Counted from the first letter of the stretch, positions 4,514-54,775 are shown. The stretch is 64,000 nucleotides of DNA from a virus (IMGVR_UViG_3300024268_000023), one strand, 5' to 3'. The notes: a model not told the origin generated them from the sequence alone. Program-made: numbers and translations.

Positions 4514-6115
4514 ATGGCATTTTACGATTTGCTTACAACTACTTTGGATAATATAACGTTAAACAACGGGGATATTATTGAATGTAGATATTCTGGGAAT
4601 TATAAAGAACTAAAACTGCCCAAAGGGAGATATTTGTTTGATTGCTACGGAGCGCAAGGAGGCACGGTTACTAATGCTGGGCATAGTAATATGATCAGTG
4701 GCAGTGATTCCCCGATAATAACGACACATCTCGGTGGACTTGGAGGACGGATTTATGGAGAAATATCCGTTGTAGAAGATACGGTCTTTTACTTATATGT
4801 TGGAGGAGAAGGACTAGAGGGGTGTTATCAGTTTGAAGGAATCCTCCCCGGAGGGTGGAACGGAGGAGGAAGTGTTTCTAATGCATACTTTGCAGGTAGT
4901 GGCGGTGGAGCAACAGATATAAGACTTTCCCACAATTTAGAAGATAGGATTATTGTCGCAGGCGCTGGTGGTGGTGGCTGTGTCGTAGGTCAATCTCTTG
5001 AAACCGATAAATATTTCGCTTTCGGCGGTGCGGGAGGTGGAATAAAAGCAGACTCGGGCTCGGTTTATAATACTTTAGAATCCTATAATTGCACTGTTGC
5101 AACTGGAGGCTCTCAAACCGAGGGAGGCATTGGCGCTTCAATAACTGGCTCTTATACTGCGCAACAAGGGGAAACAGGCAGTCTTGGAGTTGGTGGAGCT
5201 GGCACTGGAAACATAACAAAGAAACAATGTGGTGGTGGCGGCGGCGGCGGCTATTACGGAGGCGGAGGAGGAACTCTTTTATATACTAGTGGTTACGGCA
5301 ACGGAGTATTTAGCTCTGGAGCAGGGGGCTCAAGCTTTGCCTCTACGGCTTTTTCAAATACCATCCACGAGCAAGGAACGCGAAAAGGAGACGGGTTAAT
5401 TAGAATTACTGTTCTTGATTCTAATAATGAAATTTCTATTTACGTTAAAAATAATGGAAGAATACTACAATCCTCTAAAATTAATTGTAAAGTTGGAAAC
5501 GATTGGTATATAGCTGATGCTTTATATGCAAAAGTAAATAATGAATGGACAGAATGCGGGAAACAAGTCCATACTCAGCCACCTCTTGAAGATGAAAGTG
5601 GGTCTGAAGGATCGGCATTACAAAGAAAGTTATATATATACGAACAAGGAAAATCCGATGTTTTTAAACAAAATTATGGGGCAGAAACAAGTAGCTATGG
5701 AACAATTGGTTATAATTCGGATGGAGAATATTATCTTTATAGCACTTATGGAAATCTAAATTTCGTAATTACAAACTGGATAGGCCCGATAAATTGTTCT
5801 GGATATTCTAAACTTATAATAGAATATAACCGTAATAGGAATGTTAGCAGTAGTGGTTTGTATGTTGGATATGGATATGACACCGATATTGATTTACCTG
5901 ATTCAAGTGCAAATTGGGAGTCTTACTTAAAAGCTGTTGATAACGAACAAGGTATATATGTTCAAAAAAAATTCGATATAACTAATATTGATTCGGATTT
6001 TTATATCAAGATATATGTGTCAGTCCCAAGTAGCGTAAGCTCAAGAACTTCAGTCATCGCTATTAAAAATATTTGGCTTGAAAGATCTCCGGGCTTAGAA
6101 ACTGATTCGGAATAA
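4514..6115 (+). CDS. glycine-rich tail fibre / collagen-like repeat protein
   Basis: 533 aa with long Gly-rich stretches (GGGGGGGYYGGGGG, AGAGGGG) and a C-terminal beta domain. Followed by a strong terminator. Confidence 0.55.
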   Translation: MAFYDLLTTTLDNITLNNGDIIECRYSGNYKELKLPKGRYLFDCYGAQGGTVTNAGHSNMISGSDSPIITTHLGGLGGRIYGEISVVEDTVFYLYVGGEGLEGCYQFEGILPGGWNGGGSVSNAYFAGSGGGATDIRLSHNLEDRIIVAGAGGGGCVVGQSLETDKYFAFGGAGGGIKADSGSVYNTLESYNCTVATGGSQTEGGIGASITGSYTAQQGETGSLGVGGAGTGNITKKQCGGGGGGGYYGGGGGTLLYTSGYGNGVFSSGAGGSSFASTAFSNTIHEQGTRKGDGLIRITVLDSNNEISIYVKNNGRILQSSKINCKVGNDWYIADALYAKVNNEWTECGKQVHTQPPLEDESGSEGSALQRKLYIYEQGKSDVFKQNYGAETSSYGTIGYNSDGEYYLYSTYGNLNFVITNWIGPINCSGYSKLIIEYNRNRNVSSSGLYVGYGYDTDIDLPDSSANWESYLKAVDNEQGIYVQKKFDITNIDSDFYIKIYVSVPSSVSSRTSVIAIKNIWLERSPGLETDSE

Positions 6116-13139: not shown

Positions 13140-14072
13140 TTAATCTCCTTCGTTTACTTCTTTTCCTTCGGCCCGCAAACAAACAAAACTTGGAAACTGT
13201 AAGCTTTCTGTTCCTGCCTTGCTTTTTGTTACGCATTGATATTGAACTTCGACTACTCTGCCTAAAAGCTCTGGACGATGAGTCCAAATCCATTCTCTTG
13301 TAGGGATATCCATCCCACTTCCAACAGCGACCATGTTACCTTTATATTCAACCATAATCGCTCCAAGGCTGCCTTTATAGCGGCCTGTGCCTGGCTTGAA
13401 ATCAATGATTTCTAAATCAACGGTATGCTTATGCTTATATTTTAGAACATTGTTGTTTTTACTTCTCAAATAGGGGAGATCACGATTTATGACTATTCCT
13501 TCCCAGCCTTGAGCTTTGGAGTATTGAAACCATTCTTCGATTTTTGTTTGATCATAGCCTTCGTACAAATGAGGTATTAACTTCAGGTTTTCGATTTCAT
13601 TTGCAATGGCTTCATATGCATCTACAAGCGGTTCTCTGCGAAGACTATATGATGAAGTTTCCATATCCGGAATATTTGTATATTCATCGTAGCTTACTGC
13701 ATCGAAAATATGCATCTCTAAAGCGGATTTATCTGGATCAAGATTTCCTACTAAACTGCAAGTTTGAGTAAATCTGTCAAATTCATCTTCAAAATCTGAT
13801 TCTTCTCCTTTAATAAGAAGTTCACCCTCAATGATATATGGATTTGAATTTGTTCCACCCATTGCCTCATTGAGTTTCCAGCAATCTTCAAGAAGGTGTT
13901 CGCATCCGGGAATAATTCTTCGTTCCCTTGTGTAAAGATTACCGTCCTTAAAAATAGCGTGAACACCATTCATTTTCCTACTGATAGAAATCCACTCCCC
14001 CTCTTCAATATAAGAGGGGGAATATGGTTTTGGAAGTTGACAAATTATTTTTGAGGGTCTTCCTCTTGGCAT
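13140..14072 (-). CDS. lig: ATP-dependent DNA ligase (small phage type)
   Basis: Motif I KMNGVH (KxDG-like), EGELLIKGE (motif III), EGIVINRD (motif IV) and LKYKHK (motif V). Confidence 0.7.
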   Translation of the reverse strand: MPRGRPSKIICQLPKPYSPSYIEEGEWISISRKMNGVHAIFKDGNLYTRERRIIPGCEHLLEDCWKLNEAMGGTNSNPYIIEGELLIKGEESDFEDEFDRFTQTCSLVGNLDPDKSALEMHIFDAVSYDEYTNIPDMETSSYSLRREPLVDAYEAIANEIENLKLIPHLYEGYDQTKIEEWFQYSKAQGWEGIVINRDLPYLRSKNNNVLKYKHKHTVDLEIIDFKPGTGRYKGSLGAIMVEYKGNMVAVGSGMDIPTREWIWTHRPELLGRVVEVQYQCVTKSKAGTESLQFPSFVCLRAEGKEVNEGD

Positions 14073-38740: not shown

Positions 38741-38899
38741 ATTCTCCTTCCTGGCAGTCTGTTACTTCAAAGTCCCAAGACCAATCAAAATCATCGTGAC
38801 CCATTGCTCTTGCAATTTCCCATGCTTGGTCTTCTGTATCAGCTTCAATTGTCGCGAAACCAAATCTGCAAACAGTTATGTCGTATGTATTCATTATGT
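38741..38899 (-). CDS. small hypothetical protein (52 aa)
   Basis: GGAGGA RBS before the ATG (MNTYDITVCRF...). Below track cutoff. Confidence 0.35.
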
Positions 38900-42558: not shown

Positions 42559-42628
42559 TCATGGCGGCAGGAATCGAACCTGAGACACGCCCCTCTCTGG
42601 GCTGCTCTACCAACTGAGCTACGCCATG
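42559..42628 (-). tRNA. degenerate/short tRNA-like gene (70 nt, anticodon arm not foldable by hand)
   Basis: Perfect 7-bp acceptor CATGGCG/CGCCATG. Canonical D-arm GCTC-AGTTGGTA-GAGC and T-loop TTCGATT. The 19 nt between the D- and T-arms do not form a standard anticodon stem. CCA is not encoded. Confidence 0.3.
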
Positions 42629-44022: not shown

Positions 44023-44111
44023 GGCGGAGAGAGGGGGATTCGAACCCCCGCACGCTTTTACACGCCTATCGGTTTTCAAGACCGAACCCTTCAACCACTT
44101 GGGTATCTCTC
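44023..44111 (-). tRNA. tRNA-Ser(TGA)
   Basis: Acceptor GGAGAGA/TCTCTCC. Anticodon stem TCGGT/ACCGA with loop CTTGAAA. Long variable arm. 89 nt. Confidence 0.65.
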
Positions 44112-44169
44112 CACGCATGTGGGCTGATTGAATTATCTGGTCAATATTAATTCAAACTTTAGCGAAACA

Positions 44170-44250
44170 ATAAAACTCCCGAAAATAACCTGTCACACTT
44201 TCCGCCACAGTTTTGCTACAAGAATGTTTGAAGCAGGGAATGTACCTGGT
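44170..44250 (+). pseudogene. fragment of a tyrosine-integrase gene (catalytic-domain remnant)
   Basis: Encodes KITCHTFRHSFATRMFEAG, which is 16/20 identical to the window's integrase (ITCHTFRHTFATRLFESG) and about 75% identical at the nucleotide level. The remaining N-terminal ~350 codons of an integrase are absent, and the reading frame stops shortly downstream. Confidence 0.55.
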
Positions 44251-44319
44251 TCAAATTTCCAGATTTTTTACGTGTCAGCCCAACACGGAAAGCATTTTCT
44301 TTCGGCTTTTGCCTAGTCA

Positions 44320-44935
44320 GTCTGTGGTTACATGCTTTTCTTAACCCTCGTGCAAAGCTCCACAGATGTACGGAACTGACCCCATCATCTGCTTCATCGC
44401 TCGCCCCCGCCGAGCTTTTTGCAACAACGGGCAGCTTTGAACTCGGCCTTTTATTAGTCGCTTGCCGAGTAGCGACAAACATTTCACGCATCGAATAATT
44501 TATATACCGCACCATCGATAAGCGGTCTTTGTTTAAGTCCACATTAAGGCAGGGAATCACCTCGCCGAACTAGTCGGCTCCAGAACTCGTGACCAAAGAT
44601 TGGAACGAATTCGACGACCCTTTCTGCACATGGCAGACGGGCTAAAGCAAGATCTTACTTAAGACGAATAGCTATGCATTTCGTCTCTGGAATGCCGCTG
44701 TTAAGCGCAACGGCTTAGAAGCTATTCTCACATTCTGTGACGCATGGACGTTTCGCTGCTGAGTCTCGTGATGCCGTTGGCGTTAGCCATTAGGCATCTT
44801 CGTCGACTCAGCAGTCGAAACCCGAGCGCTCGTTCTCTCCTCCTAGGCGTGCCAGTGGCACGGCACGCCCTGGAGGAGAGTAACGAAAAAATCTTTGTGA
44901 TATTTTTTGTTTACTCCAGGTTACACCATAAAGCT
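44320..44935. ncRNA. GC-rich structured non-coding element A (~600 nt)
   Basis: GC content clearly above the flanking sequence. Multiple long inverted repeats (CTGCTGAGTC...GACTCAGCAG; CTCCTAGGCGTGCC...GGCACGCCCTGGAGGAG). No credible ORF. The right end carries the GGTYACACC motif shared with elements B and C. Confidence 0.4.
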
Positions 44936-45041
44936 TGGAACATTTACTAATTTTTACGGGATATATTGTCCATGTAAGCCTATTCTAATTAATTCATAAT
45001 ATATCTCGGTTCCAATATGCAATGTGAGCTTTTAATTTATC

Positions 45042-45302
45042 TTATATATAAAAGCTTGCGACAACAGGGTTATCGTAGCTAATAAGTCCTCTCTTTGAAA
45101 GTTCTTCATAGAAATAATCTATAAAAGAATCTTCGTCGAACTCCTCTTCTTCAAGATATGTATCGAGAGCGTCCTGGATTTCTCGCTTTTCTTCAGCCGT
45201 AAGTTCTCTTGTCACATCATAGGAAACAATAATTTCACCGTAGCCTGCATTATTGCAAAGGTTTACTTTCATGCAAATTCCTCCATTTTCACGATTTATC
45301 AA
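45042..45302 (-). CDS. hypothetical acidic protein
   Basis: 86-aa ORF. Confidence 0.4.
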   Translation of the reverse strand: MINRENGGICMKVNLCNNAGYGEIIVSYDVTRELTAEEKREIQDALDTYLEEEEFDEDSFIDYFYEELSKRGLISYDNPVVASFYI

Positions 45303-45607
45303 TACCTCTTCTCAAAGGCATAATCATCAATGTCAAGCATTTCCTTGAGGGCTTGAGCTTGTGGGGAATTTTCCAAGACGCGAGCCATTAGATGTACAGC
45401 ATATTCTCCGTCTTGAAGTTCGTTGTCACAAAATTCACCATAGCAGGCAAAACATTCTCCGCTATAATCCTCATCTTCTGCGACAAGTTCCATTTCCTCG
45501 AGCTCGTATCGGCGTTCCTCGCACCATTCCTTTTTATATTCTTTGTAAAGAAGAGCCGGAAGCTCATCCTCAATTTCAAGATACATTGGATTCAAAACTC
45601 CTTTCAT
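45299..45607 (-). CDS. hypothetical acidic Cys-containing protein
   Basis: 102-aa ORF with a start overlapping the previous stop. Confidence 0.4.
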   Translation of the reverse strand: MKGVLNPMYLEIEDELPALLYKEYKKEWCEERRYELEEMELVAEDEDYSGECFACYGEFCDNELQDGEYAVHLMARVLENSPQAQALKEMLDIDDYAFEKRY

Positions 45608-45905
45608 TTTATAAAATATGTTTGATAACTTATCACACTTGCGGGCGCCGGCGTCGTAGGGCCCATAGCCTGATGGGCATGAGCTTTACCGTGTTAGATG
45701 TGTTTCATCGCAGATTTTTCAGGAAGGCTGCGGGTTAACTTTTTGATTTCTTTCGGGATACATGTGTAATCCTAGAATTCATGATCATCCGCCAGCTGCT
45801 GGAGTTCAGCAGTGCCTTCGCTTCCCAGACCTCGCAGGGTTGGTTACCTCCGGAGGCGTGGTACCCTTCTTTCTGCTAATTTTTTACTTTTGGTCACACC
45901 AAGAA
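45608..45905. ncRNA. GC-rich structured non-coding element B (~300 nt)
   Basis: GC-rich with a CTGCTGGAGTTCAGCAG hairpin. The right end (CTAATTTTTTACTTTTGGTCACACCAAGAAG) is homologous to element C (CTAATCATTTTCTTTTGGTCACACCTAAAAAA), with identical TTTTGGTCACACC. Confidence 0.4.
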
Positions 45906-45952
45906 GCATCAATTGTTATTACGCAATTGATTATGCTTATCAAACAATGGTT

Positions 45953-46219
45953 TTATATAATTTCTTCTATATTAATAACTTCAAGAGAAGCTACAAGCGT
46001 ATGCTCAGGGCAATTCCATCCTGAATCAACATCAAGTATTTGCCCAGTCTCATCATCATCCAGATAATGTCCTTCATTCCAATCTTCGAATTCTACTCCG
46101 TACCAGGGTTCCTCTTCGTCTTCCATAAACTCTCTGATGATTCCAGTTTTGCCAAGCAATGAATATTCACCATCAGGCACGGCTATACATTTAACTACCT
46201 GTCCATATTTAAATTTCAT
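45953..46219 (-). CDS. small paralog-family protein 1 (ends VINIEEII)
   Basis: 88 aa starting MKFKYGQVVKC. First member of a tandem array of 11 related small genes. Confidence 0.55.
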   Translation of the reverse strand: MKFKYGQVVKCIAVPDGEYSLLGKTGIIREFMEDEEEPWYGVEFEDWNEGHYLDDDETGQILDVDSGWNCPEHTLVASLEVINIEEII

Positions 46220-46233
46220 AAACTAGACTTCCT

Positions 46234-46539
46234 TTATATAATTTCTTTTATATTGACTGATTCAAAGAGCGGAGCTAAAACGTCAGGGGAACAGTACCAT
46301 CCTGTTAAAGGTGAAACCCACTCTTGTTCTTTATCATCGAAGATTGCGTGTCCGTCTCTAATTGGTTTATCAAAACAGACACCGACCCAATCATTCCTAT
46401 CGTTCTGATTTCCAAATCCTTTACGATTAACGCATAAGACTGTTCCAACTAGGCCAACAAAGGAACGACCTCGCTCGGTATCGGTTATGTCGGTTGGTTT
46501 TTTGGTGCATCTGACTCTCTGCCCATAATGGAATTTCAT
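46234..46539 (-). CDS. small paralog-family protein 2 (ends SVNIKEII)
   Basis: 101 aa starting MKFHYGQRVRC. Confidence 0.55.
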   Translation of the reverse strand: MKFHYGQRVRCTKKPTDITDTERGRSFVGLVGTVLCVNRKGFGNQNDRNDWVGVCFDKPIRDGHAIFDDKEQEWVSPLTGWYCSPDVLAPLFESVNIKEII

Positions 46540-46814
46540 ATGAGTTCATCAACTCCAATCGGCATTTCAAGAAGGATTAAGGTTTTTGGAGGGCAATACC
46601 AACCATGATCCCACGCTATGGCCTCACCGGTTTCTGCATCGTCAAGAGAGTGTCCGTTTTCAATTTCTTCATCAAATTCAACCCCGGGCCAAAGCTCGTC
46701 TTCTGAATCATAAGATGTTGTAAAATCACGGACTGTACCTATTTGCCCTACCACGGAACCATTTCCGTCAGCAACATCTATGCAACGTACTCTTTGACCG
46801 TAATAAAACTGCAT
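46536..46814 (-). CDS. small paralog-family protein 3 (ends PIGVDELI)
   Basis: 92 aa starting MQFYYGQRVRC. ATGA start/stop overlap with the neighbour. Confidence 0.55.
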   Translation of the reverse strand: MQFYYGQRVRCIDVADGNGSVVGQIGTVRDFTTSYDSEDELWPGVEFDEEIENGHSLDDAETGEAIAWDHGWYCPPKTLILLEMPIGVDELI

Positions 46815-46829
46815 TTTGACTACCTCCTT

Positions 46830-47066
46830 TTATATAATTTCTTCTATATTAAGGATCTGAGAGCCTACAAACCCCCATGGAATAAACAGACCAATATCTC
46901 CGGTTACTTTTATTTCAGCATCATCAGGATCAATTATAGTAAGCCAATGCTCCGAGGCAGCGTGGACAGCCAGCGGTTTGTTCCCAAATTTAACCCAGTC
47001 ACTCCAAGTGAGCATATTTTTTTGTTCTGGGTTAATTTGTACTAAGTCTCCAGGCTTAATAAACAT
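46830..47066 (-). CDS. small paralog-family protein 4 (ends ILNIEEII)
   Basis: 78 aa. Confidence 0.5.
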   Translation of the reverse strand: MFIKPGDLVQINPEQKNMLTWSDWVKFGNKPLAVHAASEHWLTIIDPDDAEIKVTGDIGLFIPWGFVGSQILNIEEII

Positions 47067-47306
47067 CTATATCAACTCCTCAATGTTTATAATATCATCT
47101 ACCTTTTTTAGAGTAATTTTATAATAGCCGTAGTTCCATCCCAAACAGGCACTATTACAGTCAATCACTTTAAGCTTCCCAGAATAAATAAGCTCATCAT
47201 CTGCCGATATAATTCTTTCTATAAGATGGCCAGGAGTGAGTGGGAAACTAGATGTTATTACAAACCCATCGTCAATTTCTACTACCCAAGGGCTATAGTC
47301 TTTCAT
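47067..47306 (-). CDS. small paralog-family protein 5 (ends IINIEELI)
   Basis: 79 aa. Confidence 0.5.
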   Translation of the reverse strand: MKDYSPWVVEIDDGFVITSSFPLTPGHLIERIISADDELIYSGKLKVIDCNSACLGWNYGYYKITLKKVDDIINIEELI

Positions 47307-47614
47307 ATCAGTTCCTCTACGCCCACAGGAGCTTCGACTTTCCTGAGCTCAAGTTCTCCAGACTTAAACCAACGATGCTGACCTCGATCCGGTCGAACCT
47401 TCTCGTAAACATTTACAAGGTATTCTTTTCTCTTTTTCCCACCATCCCAGTAATCGTCTACCGAAAGGATTCTGCTTTCTCTGTTGGTTTTGTAAAGCCA
47501 ATAACGATCTTTGCCTCGCTGGCTAAATTCGACGAAATCGCCGATTTTAAATTTAGGTTTAAATCCCATATCGTACTCCTTTCTGAGACCGTTTTCTTTC
47601 AAGAAGATCAACAA
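47303..47614 (-). CDS. small paralog-family protein 6 (ends PVGVEELI)
   Basis: 103 aa. Confidence 0.5.
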   Translation of the reverse strand: MLIFLKENGLRKEYDMGFKPKFKIGDFVEFSQRGKDRYWLYKTNRESRILSVDDYWDGGKKRKEYLVNVYEKVRPDRGQHRWFKSGELELRKVEAPVGVEELI

Positions 47615-47792
47615 GGTAATTTACCTCTGATTCATATAAAGCAATGTTACCGTATTCATCTCCCCAAACGAATTCGTTTGCAATAGATCCGGTTAATTCT
47701 TCGATTTCATCGCTAATTTGTTTTATGGTAAGCTCATCCTCACTGGATAAGCCAAGTCTTTCAAGCAGGTTATCAATGTCGGCCATAGTCAA
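47559..47792 (-). CDS. hypothetical protein (no C-terminal tag)
   Basis: 77-aa helical protein. The only array member lacking the motif. Its 3' end overlaps the next gene. Confidence 0.4.
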   Translation of the reverse strand: MTMADIDNLLERLGLSSEDELTIKQISDEIEELTGSIANEFVWGDEYGNIALYESEVNYLVDLLERKRSQKGVRYGI

Positions 47793-47802
47793 CAGGCTCC
47801 TT

Positions 47803-48051
47803 TCATATTAACTCAGAGATATTTATGGGTTCAGTTGTTTTTGCAATGTATTTGCAAGGTATAAACCAGCCATGATACATCTCACACAGGCCATTGCAAT
47901 CATGCAATTCGTCTTTTTTGACATCCCATCTTACCGGAACCCAAGCTAACTCGGTTGCTCTTTCACCTGCAACTACGCCAGTGTCTCCTTTTTCCACATA
48001 ATCAAAATCTTTTACACAAATAACTCTTTGTCCTTTTGAAAATTCCATCAT
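47803..48051 (-). CDS. small paralog-family protein 7 (ends EPINISELI)
   Basis: 82 aa starting MMEFSKGQRVIC. Confidence 0.55.
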   Translation of the reverse strand: MMEFSKGQRVICVKDFDYVEKGDTGVVAGERATELAWVPVRWDVKKDELHDCNGLCEMYHGWFIPCKYIAKTTEPINISELI

Positions 48052-48353
48052 ATAAGCTCATCAACTCCCACCAATTCCCATGCTGCTTCAATCAATTTAA
48101 CATTGTCATGAAGTTTAGCTACATAACAAGCTCCGGTAACTCGTTTGAAATCACTGTCGCAGTAGTTATTAGGGTCGTCCAACATTACAAGAGCCCATCC
48201 GATGAATCGGCTATCATCACTACCGCCTGGTCTAGTTCCAAGTTCTTCAACCATTTCCTTTGTGAGATATCCGATAACTCTTCCTCTGTCTGCACAACCA
48301 TTGTTGGTGAATTCTACTCTGTCACCGATGCTCAAGCCAGATATGTTGTTCAT
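48048..48353 (-). CDS. small paralog-family protein 8 (ends LVGVDELI)
   Basis: 101 aa. Confidence 0.5.
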   Translation of the reverse strand: MNNISGLSIGDRVEFTNNGCADRGRVIGYLTKEMVEELGTRPGGSDDSRFIGWALVMLDDPNNYCDSDFKRVTGACYVAKLHDNVKLIEAAWELVGVDELI

Positions 48354-48369
48354 AGTTAAACTCCTTTCA

Positions 48370-48609
48370 TTAGATTAAATCAGATATGTTTATAACTGGA
48401 ATTTTTCTGCCGATTCTGCGAACTTCTTCTGTTCCAATTTTAAAATGATGATGGCGTTTTCCATTCTCGTATTTTACTACGGCATATTCAGTGTGAGGAT
48501 CTAATCCAGATCCTCTGTCGATACGAATAACTTCACCTCGACCCCAGACTTTGTTCCAATATTTTGTTCCTTCGACAATGTCACCGATTTCAAGCACAAG
48601 GTCACTCAT
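48370..48609 (-). CDS. small paralog-family protein 9 (ends VINISDLI)
   Basis: 79 aa. Confidence 0.5.
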   Translation of the reverse strand: MSDLVLEIGDIVEGTKYWNKVWGRGEVIRIDRGSGLDPHTEYAVVKYENGKRHHHFKIGTEEVRRIGRKIPVINISDLI

Positions 48610-48911
48610 ATCAATTCCTCCAATCCAACAATGTCAGATGTAGCAATAACTACTTTTTTGATACAAAAACGGTTCCAATACCAACCATGACCGAAGATGC
48701 CTTCTTCTGAATCTTCTTCCATTTGGACGGTGGGATTGTCTCCGTCATTGTATGCTGCACTTTTTACTGTCATCTTTTTGCCAAGCCAATGATCCATTTC
48801 GCCAAACGAATTTTCTTTGCAAAGCCCATCAAGATCCCACTCATCAACTATGAGCACAGAATCTCCCGGCTTCAAATTCTGAAAAGCTTTCTCACTTATC
48901 ATCGTGCTCAA
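48606..48911 (-). CDS. small paralog-family protein 10 (ends IVGLEELI)
   Basis: 101 aa. Its start overlaps the RT stop codon. Confidence 0.5.
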   Translation of the reverse strand: MSTMISEKAFQNLKPGDSVLIVDEWDLDGLCKENSFGEMDHWLGKKMTVKSAAYNDGDNPTVQMEEDSEEGIFGHGWYWNRFCIKKVVIATSDIVGLEELI

Positions 48912-50053
48912 GCCTCCTTGATGCGAGCTAATAGTGCGTGCTCAATATCGATTTTATACTTTTCGCTAAGGTGAGAAATAACATAATCGGCGTATTCCTT
49001 CTCTTGCTGACGAAAGTAATTGAACTGACCGAGCACAACCTGAGCATCGTGTACTGAACGTTCGTGCCCGTTTTTTGTGTCCAAAGCCCAGTTTGTGAGC
49101 ATGGCTTTAATTTCATCTTTCTTTTTCCAGCCAATTGTGATTTCTTTGTTGGCATTATACATCAGTCCCAAATGGAAGTTGTGTCCCGCAAAGGAACAGT
49201 AGTGGGTTTTCTTCGTGTTGAGCACGAAAGGAGCACCACAGTCTTTCAACATAACGAGCACGGCTTTTTCGATTTCCTTTGGGTTGAAATCTTTTGAGCA
49301 CGAAACACAGATATCATCCGCATATCTTGTGTAGTAAAACTTTTTGTCTCCATAGTTATGAGCGAGACTTTTTGACATTTCAAAATCAAAAGGAATCATA
49401 AGTAAGTTCGTGAGCATGGGAGAGATAGGGGTTCCTTGAGGCAGGCCTCCTTTGAGAAAACAGAGCTTAAGGCAATGCTCAAGAGCAATTTTCCCTTCCG
49501 GATGTTCAACAATCATACAAAAAGGGTAAATATGCGTGATGGTTTCCCATGCATATTTAAATGTAAAACTTCCAAAAAAGTTATGGAAGTCAAGGTATTC
49601 AAACCAACGACTGCCTCTGTTGGCATGGTACAATCTCTCATCTTTGGTTCCTCTACCAGGGACGTAAGCATATGCAGAAGTATGCCATTTTGCAGCACAG
49701 TCGTATTCAAAGCAATGTCTGAGAAGCTTGAGGCTTGACTTTAAGGCACCGAGAGGCTCGTCGATAGGACGTTTACCGCCATTCTTCTTAGGTATTTCAT
49801 AATGACGATAGTATTTCTCCATATGTGCCAAATCAAAGTCCTTAGTGGCTTCCACAATTCTTTCGAGTGAACGAATCATAGAATGCACATGAGTTTTCGA
49901 TTTTATGGCAAACGGAATTGCTTCTGTCTTGATGGTTCTTGTGTAGGGGATATCTCTTCTGTTTATGTTTTCAAAACTAAAATCCCCTGCTAAAAATTCA
50001 TCAATCGTGATTTGCTTTTCATGGGGAGAGGCAGGTAAAGTTATGTAATACAT
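48908..50053 (-). CDS. reverse transcriptase (retron/group-II-like, stand-alone)
   Basis: RT motif 4 LPQGTPISPMLTNLLM (QGxxxSP) and motif 5 YYTRYADDICVSC (YADD). 381 aa. No maturase, endonuclease or Zn domain. A 390-bp GC-rich non-coding region lies immediately upstream. Confidence 0.8.
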   Translation of the reverse strand: MYYITLPASPHEKQITIDEFLAGDFSFENINRRDIPYTRTIKTEAIPFAIKSKTHVHSMIRSLERIVEATKDFDLAHMEKYYRHYEIPKKNGGKRPIDEPLGALKSSLKLLRHCFEYDCAAKWHTSAYAYVPGRGTKDERLYHANRGSRWFEYLDFHNFFGSFTFKYAWETITHIYPFCMIVEHPEGKIALEHCLKLCFLKGGLPQGTPISPMLTNLLMIPFDFEMSKSLAHNYGDKKFYYTRYADDICVSCSKDFNPKEIEKAVLVMLKDCGAPFVLNTKKTHYCSFAGHNFHLGLMYNANKEITIGWKKKDEIKAMLTNWALDTKNGHERSVHDAQVVLGQFNYFRQQEKEYADYVISHLSEKYKIDIEHALLARIKEA

Positions 50054-50059
50054 TATTGC

Positions 50060-50440
50060 TCCTTTCTTCCATATCCTATATATGTGATTGCTGCTACTTC
50101 AGATCAGGAACACTAGTTGTTACTGGGTTACAGCAATTCTTTGGGTAGAGGTGAGTTACCTGTACTAGTGATAAGCTCATCTTGGCACACATGATTTCGT
50201 GTGTGATGTCGCGAGCAACCACGGTTTTGAGTTGTTTCTCTTTTGAGGTTTGAGTGAACTTACGAAGCACCCGTTCGAGATCTAGGATGCCAATCGCCGT
50301 CCCAGGGCTATTACCTTCTACTAATCATTTTCTTTTGGTCACACCTAAAAAATCGCTTTCGTTTCATGACACTTAGCGCGATCGATATGGATTTTTATTT
50401 TTGTTTACTTGAGGAGCTCTAATGAGCTCCGGTTCTTCTA
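50060..50440. ncRNA. GC-rich structured non-coding element C, upstream of the RT on the same strand
   Basis: No ORF. It carries inverted repeats (CACACATGATTTCGTGTGTG; GGAGCTC-TAAT-GAGCTCC) and the shared CTAAT...TTTTGGTCACACC motif. It is a candidate RT-associated ncRNA. Confidence 0.4.
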
Positions 50441-50441
50441 A

Positions 50442-51122
50442 TTAAAATGCCTTAGAATAAGACATGAAGGGATTGGAGAAAATAATATGTTTCCATTCTT
50501 CTCCTTTTACCATTCTCATAAAGTTTGCAACAGCCATCGAACAAATGCATCTGATAGTAGGTGCGACAGAAAGAGGCTGGTTGCACGCAGATACGGGCTG
50601 TTGCTCGTCTGCTTCTTCTTTGGTGAACTGCATGGTAGAAAGAAGACGCTCTTGGTCTTTAATGCTCTGCCAGTCAGCAGCATAATGCTGAGCATCTTCA
50701 AGACCTACGCGGATATCAAAGATACCTTTGATGGCCGGGTTACCAGAGTTTTCCTCACAAATTTTCTTTCTCAGCTCGATGTTATCGACTGCGAGAAATA
50801 CATATCCATCGAGAGGCTGATCACTGTAACCGTGTTTAAAAAGGCGAAGTCCTTTCGAACCGATTTCAATATCGGGGTTGATGCGAGTCATCATTTCTGC
50901 AACAGCATCAACTTTGAGCCGACCGATATCGGTTGCGTAAAACATCTGATTCGCTACGTTATGAGCTTCGACTGTGTCAAAGTCATAAAGCGAAACTTTT
51001 GTGAGACCGAGACGAGCAATATTTTCTGCAACAGTGCTGCCTACTGCACCACAGCCGATGATATGCACTCTGCCGTCACATTTTTCGGGCTTGAAAAATT
51101 CATAAGAACGTACAAGATCCAT
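50442..51122 (-). CDS. E1-like (ThiF/MoeB-family) adenylyltransferase
   Basis: Rossmann GCGAVGS and the YDFDTVEAHNVANQ ThiF/E1 signature. 226 aa. Confidence 0.65.
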   Translation of the reverse strand: MDLVRSYEFFKPEKCDGRVHIIGCGAVGSTVAENIARLGLTKVSLYDFDTVEAHNVANQMFYATDIGRLKVDAVAEMMTRINPDIEIGSKGLRLFKHGYSDQPLDGYVFLAVDNIELRKKICEENSGNPAIKGIFDIRVGLEDAQHYAADWQSIKDQERLLSTMQFTKEEADEQQPVSACNQPLSVAPTIRCICSMAVANFMRMVKGEEWKHIIFSNPFMSYSKAF

Positions 51123-52014: not shown

Positions 52015-52329
52015 TCAAATTATTTCTTCAATATTAACTAAGGAGAAATCACTTGTGAGTTCGTCTCCAGTGAAATACTCCCATTCTTCTGTGAAATCAA
52101 CTCGATAAGTATTGACGAGGTCTGGTGAATCATCCCAAGTGTCTTCAAAGCATCTCGAGACCACGCCTTTGTCCCCAATTTGAATTTTTTCCGTGGGAGG
52201 CTCAGAATGACACTGCCGCACATAAATGACGCGGTCTCCTTCTTTGAACTTGAATTTAGTACCCATACTGACTACCATACTGGTTACCGTAAAATCCTTT
52301 GTAACTACCGTACTGAGCAATAGCATCAT
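52015..52329 (-). CDS. hypothetical protein (ends LVNIEEII)
   Basis: 104 aa with the shared C-terminal motif. Confidence 0.45.
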   Translation of the reverse strand: MMLLLSTVVTKDFTVTSMVVSMGTKFKFKEGDRVIYVRQCHSEPPTEKIQIGDKGVVSRCFEDTWDDSPDLVNTYRVDFTEEWEYFTGDELTSDFSLVNIEEII

Positions 52330-53296
52330 GCTCTTCTTTTATGATTTCTGCTTCAACAAGAAGGTCGTCTATTGTGTTTTTGGTGAAGCCAGCGTTAACA
52401 GACTCGAGCAATTCTTCAAGAATTTCGTCTGCTTCAAGCCAACCTACGGTAAGGGCAGTAACGATAGTGCTTGCAGAAATCTGGAGCTGAGTCTTAGTGA
52501 GAGGTTTCTTTTTCCCAGACTCTTTTCCTTTAGAGCCTTTGGATTCTTTAGTGCCGGAAGAAGCACCAGAAGTGGAAGGGAATTGGCTCACGTTAGATTT
52601 ACTGTAATTGGAATTATAAGTTCCACCGTAGGTTTTGGCTTTGAGCTTATCTTCTTTTTCGGTTTTCACCCACCCGAGAAGGTCTTCTCCAACGGGTACC
52701 ACAAAATCAATTTCTTTTGTATCAAAGAGAGCATTGCTTTCCATATCGTAAAGAGCTCCAGTGAACTCAAAAGATTTATTCATAATGAAGAAGATAAAGA
52801 ACCCATCATCGTCAAGAGTTTCAACTACTTCCTTTCTGCAAATCATATCTGTAGAAGAGGGGGAAGGAGCCATATTGACATGAGAATGTCCCTGAAAATT
52901 AAGTTTGCATCTCTGCTGAACAGGAATTTTTGAAAGCCACAGAGCCCTTTCGGTTTCATCCGCTTCAACGGTTGCAGAAGCGACTTTCTGAGGGTAAACA
53001 AGAATGTCGGTAATTTTGAAATGAGTTTCATCGATGCGATCGACAATACCATTCCAAGCAACCTCACTGTTTGTCATACAAACAAGAGCGGACATTTTAG
53101 CCCATGCTTCGGGAGTAAACTCGACCTGGGGTCTGTCATAGTCTTTTGAAGTGTAAGCATAAGGCATTTTGAACTCAATGGTTCCGTCTTTAAGAACATC
53201 AGTTTTGAGTTTTTCAAGAAACGAATCTACTTTTTCAAGCAGAGCTGCCTTGGTTTCTTCAATCATGTTTTCAGTTGCTCTAATAGGTTTCGGCAT
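52256..53296 (-). CDS. JAB/MPN+ (JAMM) metalloprotease domain protein
   Basis: The HSHVNMAPSPSSTD stretch matches the JAMM motif HxHx7Sx2D, with an upstream Glu. A Lys/Ser-rich linker leads to a C-terminal domain. The 5' end overlaps the previous gene, so the true start may be internal. Confidence 0.65.
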   Translation of the reverse strand: MPKPIRATENMIEETKAALLEKVDSFLEKLKTDVLKDGTIEFKMPYAYTSKDYDRPQVEFTPEAWAKMSALVCMTNSEVAWNGIVDRIDETHFKITDILVYPQKVASATVEADETERALWLSKIPVQQRCKLNFQGHSHVNMAPSPSSTDMICRKEVVETLDDDGFFIFFIMNKSFEFTGALYDMESNALFDTKEIDFVVPVGEDLLGWVKTEKEDKLKAKTYGGTYNSNYSKSNVSQFPSTSGASSGTKESKGSKGKESGKKKPLTKTQLQISASTIVTALTVGWLEADEILEELLESVNAGFTKNTIDDLLVEAEIIKEEHDAIAQYGSYKGFYGNQYGSQYGY

Positions 53297-53308: not shown

Positions 53309-54775
53309 TTAACTGTTTTCTCTAAGCCATGCAACTGCATCTATGTAGTTTACTTTGCGTCCATCAGGAAGAAGATAAGGACACTGATGTTTATTCCAAA
53401 GCTGTTCTTTGGAGTATCTTTCAACTACGCAATCATCGGTGAATACGAGATATGGGCAAGAACCAATTGCCTGAGAAACGGCACCAACGTAGTTGCCGAC
53501 GCTCATGCATTCAGTCATTCTGCTCTCGTTGGTTCCAAGACATCTGTAATAGTAATGATGCGGCTGGGGAGCATATCCGGCGAATTTAGGAGCGGGTTCG
53601 CAAAGTCCCGGTTCATCTTTGCTTATTACAGAAAGAGTTCCGCGCTCAAGGGAAAGTCTGAAGTTCGAATAAACAGGAACCTTAATTTCACGCTCAATAA
53701 AGACTGACTCCATGAGCTTGATTGCTTCTTTTTCAGTAATTTCCTTTTCTTTATCGCGATAAGCACAGTAAATTCTTCTGCGGATATCATCAATGTCATG
53801 AGTCGGGTCTTTAAACGCTGTGAGATTTGCGGTGGCGGTAAAAATGAGATCATTGCCTTGCCAAGTGCGAATCGCAATTGAAGGTCTTCCAGTGAAAAGA
53901 ACTGCAAGTTCAGAGCCATCACCATCTTCGTCTACCTCAAGAGAACGTTTTCTAAGATAGCTATCCCTGATGCGTGCTGCATAATCTTCAAGCTTTGCAA
54001 CGGTATCACGATACTGTCTGTTAAGATTATCCAGTTCAGAGGTCGCATTACGAAGGAGTTTTCCTTTTACGCTTTTGTAAGCATTTTTGAATTTGATGCT
54101 CTGTACTTTTTCAGCAACATCAGTTCCTTCATAAATTTTCTGAGCAGCGGCAACAAATTCGTTATCACCAATGTCGATAGCTCTAACAAGTTCTCTTTCA
54201 AGTTCATTGAGGGGATGGTTTTCAAAAGTAAAATCGGGTTTCACATTGAAATACCAAGGAATAATTCTGGGGCATACTGCTGCACACACGTTCCAGAAAT
54301 ATTCACCAACGATAGAACCGACAACGACTGAAATCTTGTCTTTTTCGTTGTAATAAGTTTGAATAAAGTCGCCTTCATTTTTATATTCCTGTTTTTCGAT
54401 GCGACCATCGAAAAACTTATTTACTATATCGTTAGGCACAAAGCCACGTTTTGTAAAAATAGCTTTGAGCGGAGTTTTCAAAGTTTTGTACTGTCCTACA
54501 TAAATGTAGTAAAGGGAACCAGGTGTAAGTTCCAGTGCTTCAACTTTTCCCTTTGTGCCATCGACGGTTTCGTTTGCGAAGTTTATGGAAGTAAAGTTGA
54601 AGATTTCCCCATCTTTAAGTCTCGGAGGAAGACATGCTCTAAAGACGATACGGGGAACCTCGTGTTTGTCTTGTTCAGTTCCATGCTCTACGATGTTCGG
54701 ATAACATTCGGCAAGGGCAAGCTCGCCTATTTCGATGTGGGTAGAGAGCTCAGCTACAGGATATCTTTCATCCAT
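53309..54775 (-). CDS. large hypothetical protein in E1/JAB neighbourhood
   Basis: 488 aa with several Cys/His pairs near the C-terminus. No E2 HPN motif seen. Confidence 0.45.
   Translation of the reverse strand: MDERYPVAELSTHIEIGELALAECYPNIVEHGTEQDKHEVPRIVFRACLPPRLKDGEIFNFTSINFANETVDGTKGKVEALELTPGSLYYIYVGQYKTLKTPLKAIFTKRGFVPNDIVNKFFDGRIEKQEYKNEGDFIQTYYNEKDKISVVVGSIVGEYFWNVCAAVCPRIIPWYFNVKPDFTFENHPLNELERELVRAIDIGDNEFVAAAQKIYEGTDVAEKVQSIKFKNAYKSVKGKLLRNATSELDNLNRQYRDTVAKLEDYAARIRDSYLRKRSLEVDEDGDGSELAVLFTGRPSIAIRTWQGNDLIFTATANLTAFKDPTHDIDDIRRRIYCAYRDKEKEITEKEAIKLMESVFIEREIKVPVYSNFRLSLERGTLSVISKDEPGLCEPAPKFAGYAPQPHHYYYRCLGTNESRMTECMSVGNYVGAVSQAIGSCPYLVFTDDCVVERYSKEQLWNKHQCPYLLPDGRKVNYIDAVAWLRENS

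Follow-up and report, generated by a model that had tools for sequence, protein, structure and literature searches.

What are the three similar non-coding elements that surround a reverse transcriptase (RT) gene in the virus IMGVR_UViG_3300024268_000023, and do they belong to this gene? An earlier note on the 64,000-nt stretch of DNA analysed here (the window) had described elements A, B and C as homologous, GC-rich and structured, and the region from 44320 to 50365 was followed up. The elements had been read on the opposite strand, and their limits were also incorrect; every gene in the region around them is carried by the minus strand. Their homology holds in so far as each of six close relatives has three copies with a shared module. 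We regard it as probable that A, B and C are three paralogous ncRNA genes of a single phage-encoded retron-like system. The proposal of a family of structured phage ncRNAs was right in kind, as hairpins 1 and 2 and the terminal arms a1/a2 covary, but it missed that the RNAs belong to the adjacent RT and have the msr-msd anatomy of retrons.

Read on the minus strand, on which all features given below lie, the units are paralogous, about 300 nt long each and built on a common plan. Each unit is closed by an inverted repeat of 8–10 nt (a1 and a2), with a G directly 3' of a1 and an AG directly 5' of a2. From 5' to 3', the arms enclose hairpin 1, then hairpin 2, whose apex is GG-UGUNA-CC, then a tail (GUAAAC) and finally a variable, GC-richer body. 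The candidate priming G of each unit is assigned at the sequence level.

Unit C, an msr-msd-like ncRNA, is located at 50068–50391 directly upstream of the RT, with 14 nt from the end of a2 to the ATG of the RT. Its a1 (TCCATATC, 50384–50391) is followed by the candidate priming G at 50383, hairpin 1 (50352–50382) and hairpin 2 (50332–50351, apex GGUGUGACC), while a2 (GATATGGA, 50068–50075) is preceded by AG. The MFE fold of the unit closes a1/a2, and the same architecture was found upstream of the RT throughout the family. Unit B, the second retron-like ncRNA (45619–45946), lies downstream of an array of small-protein genes and features a1 (TGTTTGATAA, 45937–45946), the candidate priming G at 45936, hairpin 1 (45908–45931), hairpin 2 (45887–45906, again GGUGUGACC) and a2 (TTATCAAACA, 45619–45628, with AG before it). 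Its MFE structure contains a1/a2 and both hairpins, with a z-score of -3.9. Unit A, the third retron-like ncRNA (44727–45028), has a1 CTCACATT at 45021–45028 and a2 AATGTGAG at 44727–44734, the latter again preceded by AG. Its candidate priming G at 45020 is followed by a long msr-like part, hairpin 2 (GGUGUAACC) is found at 44914–44933, and the body forms two long msd-like hairpins at 44831–44885 and 44746–44823. These long hairpins are near-perfect; in L118, L122 and L125 their form is kept with unrelated sequence, as expected for an msd. In units B and C the body measures about 230 nt and is branched, with too much divergence between orthologs for an alignment.

Several properties assigned to the elements in the earlier note have to be revised accordingly. 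The parts upstream of the shared motif were said to align with indels, but a three-way MAFFT alignment gave a mean column identity of 51% with scattered matches, and the orthologous bodies diverge as well. The G + C content of the units (0.43–0.46) is indeed above that of the window (0.396), albeit modestly rather than markedly. The higher value of the former element A (0.495) is mainly due to the inclusion of other RNAs, since this element (44320–44935) is a composite of a part of a drum RNA, a separate conserved core at 44555–44726 and unit A without its 5' third. The elements were also called free of ORFs; no credible gene was found in them, although mechanical ORFs of 40–114 aa overlap the regions.

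The a1/a2 arms of units C, B and A are entirely different from one another and still complementary, and they covary between paralogs as well as between orthologs. Compared to the arms of unit A in the window, both arms are changed together in its ortholog in L125 (a1 TTTATTTGCATT, a2 AATGCAAATAAA), and the ortholog in L123 carries AACTCACATT and AATGTGAGTT. A complement of at least 9 nt was present in 75 of 121 distinct units, compared to 12 of 121 in a control of the same size. Among the 109 units with a complement of at least 8 nt, the G directly after a1 was observed in 93 and the AG directly before a2 in 76; the number of distinct innermost arm 8-mers across the family is 32. The msr-msd consensus of retrons includes inverted repeats at the ends and 'two opposing G residues' (Mestre et al. 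2020, PMC7736814), and the anatomy of the three units is retron-like.

The RT (48908–50053, minus strand, 381 aa) has a YADD active site (YTRYADD) and matches Pfam RVT_1 with an E-value of 1e-18. It is retron-type by HMM, PDB sequence search and predicted fold. The best matches in PADLOC are all retron RTs (RT_II-A, 1e-43), and so are the sequence matches in the PDB. The predicted fold (pLDDT 88.7) yielded retron RTs as the first 13 Foldseek matches, with target-length normalised TM-scores of 0.61–0.77 where the chain consists of the RT only, and of about 0.40 where it is the longer Eco2 fusion. The score of 164 bits against NCBIfam retron_St85_RT is below the curated cut-off of 235, and with all other NCBIfam retron models, too, the RT stays under the curated threshold, indicating a divergent sister group instead of a member of a named retron type. 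The canonical retron RT motifs are absent: in the alignment with Ec78, NAXXH (NAAAH) is replaced by ERLYH and VTG by L-G. Of both motifs only H and G are kept, in agreement with the family consensus, and these are the most conserved residues of the two motifs (Mestre et al. 2020, PMC7736814). An N-terminal extension of 75 aa was also found.

As in bacterial retrons such as Retron-Eco7/Ec78, Sen2/St85 and Eco1/Ec86, an ncRNA immediately precedes the RT on the same strand and is closed by inverted repeats at its ends, with a G following a1 and another G facing it ahead of a2. The 5' (msr) part has one to three short hairpins, and the variable 3' part contains long hairpins, the latter clearest in unit A. 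The RT is also closest to retron RTs in sequence and fold. In contrast to retrons, it is encoded by a large tRNA-rich phage and not by a bacterial defence island, and one RT is combined with three (sometimes two or four) units, two of which lie downstream or are separated by unrelated genes. Further differences are the reduction of the RT motifs to H and G, the N-terminal extension and the lack of a recognisable effector. In the stretch of ten proteins that begins with the RT and ends with the small genes separating B and A, PADLOC matched only the RT, and no known retron effector was identified. An upstream ThiF-like protein weakly resembles the E1-like anti-phage protein 6A-MBL cap2_3 of a defence system (64.7 bits, cut-off 320). 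A typical retron msd is a single long hairpin, whereas the units described here are about 300 nt in size with branched bodies in B and C.

For all three units, we infer reverse transcription, the priming chemistry and the point at which synthesis stops by analogy with retrons. Each unit would be transcribed from the minus strand and closed by its own a1/a2 stem of 8–10 bp, which would set the conserved G 3' of a1 opposite the conserved AG 5' of a2. Hairpin 1, hairpin 2 with its GG-UGUNA-CC apex and the GUAAAC tail would form an msr-like handle shared by all units and recognised by the single RT, with the variable body and its long hairpins as the msd-like template. With the 2'-OH of the G after a1 as primer, the RT would start copying at the AG next to a2, so that one enzyme could yield three different small RT-DNAs.

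A rather unlikely alternative is that the units serve the RT as templates or cofactors through a non-retron mechanism, such as DRT2-like synthesis of concatemeric cDNA, in which a template with defined bounds is copied again and again, or as an RNA scaffold for protein-primed or untemplated synthesis, which is known from other defence-associated RTs. Such a comparison is to be expected if the family corresponds to UG27, a 'Class 2 UG/Abi' RT group with DRT2 and DRT9 as relatives (Mestre et al. 2022, PMC9226505). The missing NAXXH and VTG motifs and the long, branched bodies of B and C would fit this alternative. It is also in line with the description of UG27 (PMC9226505), according to which this RT of gut phages is found next to a putative ncRNA and together with two functionally uncharacterised proteins, as the RT studied here is syntenic in both close and distant phages with two proteins of about 490 aa and about 340 aa whose function is equally obscure. 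On the other hand, sequence and fold place the RT much nearer to retron RTs than to DRT2 or DRT9, for which Foldseek gave E-values of about 1e-9 to 1e-10 and an rmsd of 8–14 Å, far worse than for retrons, and the a1-G ... AG-a2 geometry is a hallmark of retrons. DRT2 and DRT9 also combine a single-domain RT with a structured ncRNA encoded beside it, whose template role is known there and putative here. However, they are host defence systems with structurally distant RTs and ncRNAs without the a1-G/AG-a2 closure.

The family may overlap with the poorly described group UG27, to which it was compared by way of the published description. Shared features are a single-domain RT, occurrence in many human-gut phages with Bacteroidota or Firmicutes hosts and with genomes including sizes of about 80–170 kb, a conserved structured non-coding region adjoining the RT and the two associated proteins of unknown function (PMC9226505). 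Unlike expected for UG/Abi class 2, the RT from the window is clearly nearest to retron RTs. For the UG27 ncRNA, the description is limited to 'three long stem-loops' that lie between the RT and a neighbour gene (PMC9226505). Its representatives (WP_130081123.1, WP_107042867.1, ROS93083.1 and RXE72145.1; PMC9226505 supplement) are mostly RefSeq WP_ proteins, whereas the members of the present family found in GTDB genomes are all located on contigs of uncultured genomes, namely metagenome-assembled genomes and one single-cell assembly.

The retron-like reading is also supported by the distribution of the units. All six close relatives (RT identity of 70–88%) contain exactly three same-strand units at the same three places, and no gene was called in the gaps of these genomes that bear the units. 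A covariance model (R1) recovered all 21 units expected in the window and the close relatives. It also yielded 154 matches in 80 IMG/VR loci and 58 in GTDB loci of the family. The search for further copies suggested earlier gave a total of 233 accepted copies from about 130 related loci, each on the strand of the RT, and no match was obtained in 22 loci with ordinary retron RTs. The units are exclusively associated with this RT family and with its strand. In distant members the usual layout is unit-RT-unit-unit, with units that mostly flank the RT directly. This order persists over a range of RT identities from 88% to about 38%, with a changing set of genes between the units. The number of units per genome is usually three, sometimes two or four.

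These data render it quite improbable that the units are autonomous phage ncRNAs, such as processed sRNAs co-transcribed with the cluster of tRNAs, drum and skipping-rope or 5' leaders that regulate the gene downstream, which merely lie near the RT and are not reverse transcribed. Such a role would suit the positions of the units, each of which is followed by the RT, a small gene or a cluster of RNAs, with other ncRNAs and a 12-tRNA array following unit A. Yet the module is restricted to loci with an RT of this family, invariably on the strand of the RT and in most cases directly next to it. In addition, the apex type of hairpin 2 is common to the units of one genome and differs between genomes with distant RTs, which fits recognition by the cognate RT.

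The motif that led to the three elements is part of this hairpin. There are exactly two copies of GGTGTGACCAAAAG, which is TTTTGGTCACACC read in reverse complement, at 45887–45900 and 50332–50345, both on the minus strand, and the related GGTGTAACCTGGAGTAAAC is found in unit A at 44927 (minus), as had been noted for element A. The similarity reported for the right ends of B and C was borne out, with 29 of 35 ungapped positions identical, while the best of 20 composition-preserving shuffles of the 6.4-kb region reached 25 of 35. The motif is not terminal as was assumed, because on the minus strand, which carries the genes, it forms the apex of hairpin 2 and begins 46 nt into units B and C and 101 nt into unit A, counted from their 5' ends. 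The proposed check for covariation was positive: in 24 sequences, 98.2% of the cells of hairpin 2 are paired and six of seven pairs are changed on both sides. None of 500 shuffles was as good, and slid controls were 33–53% paired. In hairpin 1 of unit B, five of eight pairs are changed on both sides. According to this strand-specific covariation, the units are RNA structures.

The near-palindrome TTGGT-cac-ACC had also been interpreted as a possible protein operator, and the extended motif CTTTTnGGTGTnACCnAAAAG in B and C is nearly palindromic as DNA. A DNA operator or promoter element for a dimeric protein is nevertheless very improbable. Pairing is held by U:G/G:U pairs on the minus strand only (CUUUA/UGGAG in unit A), which would be C-A mismatches on the opposite strand, and the centre base of the near-palindrome is free (G, A, T or C). 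Other clades have a wholly different stem sequence with pairing retained, and the matches of the covariance model show a total strand bias. A sigma-70-like promoter was looked for at the units and not found, and no promoter was recognised for them. Hardly credible as well is the suggestion that B and C, which share a direct repeat of about 35 nt and enclose the RT with the paralog array, are the ends of a mobile or recombining cassette, given that genomes hold three or four complete units of about 300 nt and not two, that the shared stretch is internal to units with private inverted repeats, and that the unit-RT-unit order is conserved family-wide with only the cargo between units varying and no empty site seen.

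The array itself (45953–48911, minus strand) is located between the RT and unit B and encodes about ten paralogous small SH3-like proteins of 75–110 aa. Distant relatives lack it or have something else in its place, and there the units directly follow the RT. The array is cargo inserted between the units and stands outside the RNA/RT system.

As the layout recurs across a big gut-phage family, the multi-template retron seems to be operated by a virus and not from a defence island of the host. Tentatively, we propose that a family of gut phages of Clostridia and Bacteroidota possesses its own retron, in which a single RT would produce three (two to four) msDNA-like RT-DNAs with a shared handle for use in counter-defence or takeover. 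If true, it would be without precedent both as a retron with several templates and as a retron that works on the phage side. Phage counter-defence or host takeover as the biological role is a guess of low confidence.

Other types of retroelements were considered for the locus. A diversity-generating retroelement (DGR) features a pair of template and variable repeats of about 100–150 nt, differing at adenines, together with a DGR-type RT. This candidate was rejected, as the sole repeat between the units is the 35-nt module and a DGR RT ranked 31st by fold. A group II intron was likewise rejected (no Rfam intron match up to E = 5; TIGR04416 with 77 bits compared to a cut-off of 300).

An Rfam 15 search of positions 44100–50500 up to E = 5, one of the checks suggested earlier, matched no family to units A, B or C. 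The motifs RT-1 to RT-19, reportedly linked to RT genes by Weinberg et al. in 2017, were unmatched as well, provided that they are contained in the release searched. The sole match was the drum RNA (RF02958) at 44287–44402 on the minus strand (67.3 bits, gathering score of 43). Drum and skipping-rope (RF02924), structured RNAs of unknown function, are located in the ncRNA/tRNA cluster that follows unit A; they represent different families without similarity to the units and only overlap or adjoin the former element A. Immediately 3' of unit A, a separate, very highly conserved structured RNA core of about 172 nt (44555–44726, minus strand) was found, again without Rfam match up to E = 5. Its consensus fold comprises several hairpins with one compensatory pair, and its sequence is 93–94% identical in relatives whose RT identity is only 70–71%.

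The 381-aa reverse transcriptase (RT) encoded at 48908-50053 on the minus strand (Pfam RVT_1) is a retron-type enzyme. Its best PADLOC matches were all retron RTs (RT_II-A at 1e-43), as were the strong matches in a sequence search of the PDB. In the NCBIfam comparison, retron_St85_RT ranked first with 164 bits, which is below its cut-off of 235, while Group II RT and Drt2 scored 77 and 51 bits, respectively. An AlphaFold model of the protein (pLDDT 88.7) retrieved retron RTs as its first 13 Foldseek matches (Eco7/Ec78, type I-A, Ec86, Ec83 and Eco2), with target-length-normalised TM-scores of 0.61-0.77 against chains that contain just the RT and about 0.40 against the longer Eco2 fusions. Next in rank were group II RTs, with DRT9, DRT2 and DGR RT far behind. 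The enzyme features an N-terminal extension of 75 aa. The canonical NAXXH and VTG motifs are absent, with just their H and G retained, and no known retron effectors were found near the gene.

Every credible gene from 41 to 57 kb of the window is located on the minus strand. About ten small paralogous SH3-like proteins of 75-110 aa, with weak SH3-like and phrog_22041 matches, are encoded downstream of the RT (45953-48911, minus strand), followed by two further small genes (45042-45607, minus strand), a non-coding stretch and an array of 12 tRNAs. The C-terminal coding ends and intergenic junctions of the small-protein array are nearly identical (repeat families D1-D4), and in relatives further paralogs are present upstream of the ThiF-like gene.

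Three large gaps lack called genes, both in the window and in every relative. They correspond to elements C (50060-50365), B (45608-45905) and A (44320-44935) of the earlier note, in which these were described as GC-rich homologues sharing a terminal motif. This description was confirmed in part. The shared motif holds up and is non-random: the minus strand carries GGTGTGACCAAAAG at two places (45887-45900 and 50332-50345), 29 of 35 positions match between B and C in an ungapped comparison in which shuffles reach at most 25, and the related GGTGTAACC was found in A at 44927. Read on the coding strand, the motif falls within the first (5') third of each element and is not terminal. The bodies, which had been thought to align, were unalignable in a three-way alignment of A, B and C and even between orthologs. 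GC enrichment was observed, although it is only modest (0.43-0.46 for the units compared to 0.396 for the window), and the limits proposed for element A merge three different RNAs.

The unit plan read from orthologs comprises, from 5' to 3', an arm (a1), a G, hairpin 1, hairpin 2, a tail, a variable body (roughly 150-230 nt), AG and a second arm (a2) forming an inverted repeat with a1. Hairpin 2 of the window clade reads CUUUUnGG-UGUNA-CCnAAAG, with GUAAACGAUUAC as the tail. Each unit has arms of its own: unit C (50068-50391) is closed by a1 TCCATATC (50384-50391) and a2 GATATGGA (50068-50075), unit B (45619-45946) by a1 TGTTTGATAA (45937-45946) and a2 TTATCAAACA (45619-45628), and unit A (44727-45028) by a1 CTCACATT (45021-45028) and a2 AATGTGAG (44727-44734). 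In unconstrained MFE folds of units C and B, a1/a2 was closed and both hairpins were formed. For unit A, a first arm pair taken from the MFE fold, GAAUAGGCUU with AAGGCCGAGUUC, was dropped because it is not conserved; the pair adopted instead is conserved and covaries among orthologs (AACTCACATT/AATGTGAGTT in the relative L123, TTTATTTGCATT/AATGCAAATAAA in L125). A G directly 3' of a1 was found in unit A and its orthologs in every case. In the fold of unit A, a1/a2 is closed and hairpin 2 is followed by a pair of long, almost perfect hairpins (44831-44885 and 44746-44823); orthologs retain such hairpins with unrelated sequence.

Covariation supports a1/a2 and both hairpins. Across 24 diverse sequences, hairpin 2 was 98.2% paired, with six of its seven pairs changed on both sides; none of 500 shuffles matched the observed values and slid controls were 33-53% paired. 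Hairpin 1 of unit B has compensatory changes in five of eight pairs. A complement of at least 9 nt for a1/a2 was present in 75 of 121 distinct units, compared to 12 in a control window of the same size, and the innermost 8 bp of the arms comprise 32 distinct sequences. Where the complement was at least 8 nt long (109 units), a G follows the a1 arm in 93 units and AG precedes the a2 arm in 76.

Hundreds of RT homologs were found in metagenomes. The six close relatives examined (RT identity 70-88%, contigs up to 170 kb) keep the gene order of ThiF-like gene, gap, RT, small genes, gap, one to several small genes, gap and tRNAs; L123 has no small genes between the second and third gap. Each of the six contains exactly three same-strand copies of GGTGTNACC, with a free centre base, in those three gaps. 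Megablast of the region against GenBank phages yielded no match, and with tblastn the sole in-family record was MT835544.1 (34% identity).

The interpretations offered in the earlier note fared differently. A family of structured phage ncRNAs is supported, both by the covariation of hairpin 2, hairpin 1 and a1/a2 and by the further copies in relatives. An E-value search of Rfam over 44100-50500 returned drum RNA as the sole match. The position of B and C on either side of the small-protein array and RT had suggested the ends of a mobile or recombining cassette, a reading we reject because three or four complete units are present in conserved order and no empty site was seen. A protein operator on DNA, proposed for the near-palindromic core of the motif, is rejected on the basis of G:U pairs, complete strand bias and covariation.

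The structured RNA units extend to more distant members of the RT family. A search for related loci with a single protein as query gave no matches, whereas an alignment-based scan of IMG/VR yielded 80 loci with an RT identity of about 37-42%, on viral contigs of mostly 40-150 kb (range 7-150 kb). The same unit plan was found upstream of nearly every RT in these loci. Upstream units of the family are 254-360 nt long, with 13-34 nt between the end of a2 and the start codon of the RT. Examples of distant a1 arms are ACTGTAAC, TATGCAAT, AAATCGTGAT, GTCTGTATT and GCTATAAT; a1 is followed by G, hairpin 1, hairpin 2, GUAAC(A/G)A-UUG, a body, AG and the matching a2. An exact search of IMG/VR with the 14-mer motif led to 117 loci, all unrelated and regarded as chance matches.

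A covariance model of the 5' module of the unit (R1) recovered all 21 expected units in seven close genomes and yielded 154 matches in the 80 IMG/VR loci and 58 in GTDB-derived loci of the RT family, all on the RT strand. No match was obtained in 22 loci with ordinary retron RTs (26-33% identity). Weak matches in the window at 13784-13843 (E = 0.022) and 38747-38795 (E = 0.054) are located inside ORFs and were rejected as chance. Of more than a thousand candidate matches in metagenomes, at least 130 loci were analysed, and the unit arrangement is conserved across them. Most commonly, one unit is located upstream of the RT and two follow in tandem directly downstream. Units of locus L130 start at 5636, 7164 and 7445, the second and third each with their own a1-G ... 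AG-a2; the distant phage L203 has four (5520, 7461, 9084 and 10711). Based on the usual layout, one RT with about three units is the ancestral state, and the window clade gained unrelated small genes between the units. A calcineurin-like phosphoesterase gene (Pfam Metallophos, 9e-14) is present after two tandem units in L130 (7739-8437) and L165 (7487 onward).

The apex of hairpin 2 is common to the units of one genome and differs where the RTs are more distantly related. It reads GG-UGUNA-CC in the window clade, CGCC-AAA-GGC in L130, GC-UGUNA-GC in L126, L163 and L199, and GG-UUUUA-CC in L203. Such a pattern is predicted by recognition through the cognate RT; gene conversion could also contribute. 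All apices of L203 conform to GG-U(A/U)U(A/U)A-CC, which resembles the apex of the window clade, and one of its units is located farther upstream, separated from the RT by a small ORF.

Retrons are known from bacteria as anti-phage systems in which each RT has a single ncRNA, whereas here three units per genome are found around the RT, in phages. The anatomy of the units resembles the msr-msd consensus, in which inverted repeats at the termini and a pair of opposing G residues accompany an msr part with one to three hairpins and an msd part with a long stem of variable sequence (Mestre et al. 2020, PMC7736814); the msd-like hairpins are clearest in unit A. Given this anatomy and the retron-type enzyme, the most economical and most probable model is a conserved, phage-encoded retron-like system, in which one RT would use three templates. 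The RNA structure of the units, their paralogy and their association with the RT are established by the analysis, and reverse transcription, 2'-OH priming and a biological role are inferred.

None of the papers searched describes several msr-msd units served by a retron-type RT, or a system of this kind in a phage. RNA motifs associated with RTs have been suspected to be retrons (Weinberg et al. 2017), none of which matches here, provided that the Rfam release searched includes them. A similar description exists for UG27, an RT that is frequent in gut phages with Bacteroidota and Firmicutes hosts and was reported together with a putative ncRNA of 'three long stem-loops' and two associated proteins whose function is not known (Mestre et al. 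2022, PMC9226505). The window RT family resembles it in ecology, in genome size (a 171.5-kb Blautia phage for UG27, a 169.9-kb relative of the window) and in synteny with proteins of about 490 and 340 aa, both of unknown function. Two points argue against the families being the same: UG27 is classed with DRT2-like RTs while the window RT is retron-like, and UG27 is represented mainly by RefSeq WP_ proteins whereas all window-family RTs were found on contigs from uncultured genomes. It is a realistic possibility that the link between RT and ncRNA has already been recorded as UG27; the retron anatomy and the triple units may fall outside that record.

If the units are reverse transcribed, the phages would produce several programmable small DNAs during infection, a new viral product that possibly acts in counter-defence. 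One RT would then naturally take several templates via a compact handle (hairpin 2 apex and tail), which would be of direct use in multiplexed retron editing. Exact coordinates are available for a1/a2, for the candidate priming G (50383 in unit C, 45936 in B and 45020 in A) and for the predicted template start (near 50076, 45629 and 44735, respectively), which makes the question experimentally tractable.

A structured RNA core some 172 nt in length is located at 44555-44726 (minus strand), directly 3' of the a2 arm of unit A and inside the former element A. Its identity is 93-94% in genomes whose RT identity is just 70-71%, and it is absent from distant loci of the RT family. The fold has several hairpins with one compensatory pair, and no Rfam match was obtained for the core. 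It is followed by a variable stretch and then by drum RNA (RF02958, 44287-44402, minus strand, 67 bits), which shares the RNA/tRNA cluster with skipping-rope RNA (RF02924, 42093-42162, minus strand, 46 bits). Both RNAs, which have been described and tied to specific nearby protein genes (Weinberg et al. 2017), are located a few kb from the retron-type RT. For a tRNA-like gene at 42559-42628 (minus strand; Rfam tRNA, 46 bits), ARAGORN gives an anticodon of just two bases, 'ag', and assigns no amino acid.

A scan for sigma-70 promoters and terminators revealed no convincing candidate at the units. A GC-rich hairpin, GGAGCTC...GAGCTCC (50413-50430), separates unit C from the ThiF-like gene and is kept in relatives; it was reported by the scan on the plus strand only and could be a terminator or processing site that delimits the unit C transcript on its 5' side.

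Synteny upstream of the RT is kept in close and distant phages (window 50442-51122, 52256-53296 and 53309-54775, minus strand; L130 1678-4784). The genes of this set encode a 226-aa ThiF/E1-like protein and two larger proteins, one of about 340 aa and one of about 490 aa without assigned function. The 340-aa protein has no Pfam match; its QGHSHVNMAPSPSSTD resembles by eye what we take to be a JAB/MPN+ metalloprotease motif. Taken together, the upstream set has the appearance of a kit for ubiquitin-like conjugation that accompanies the RT.
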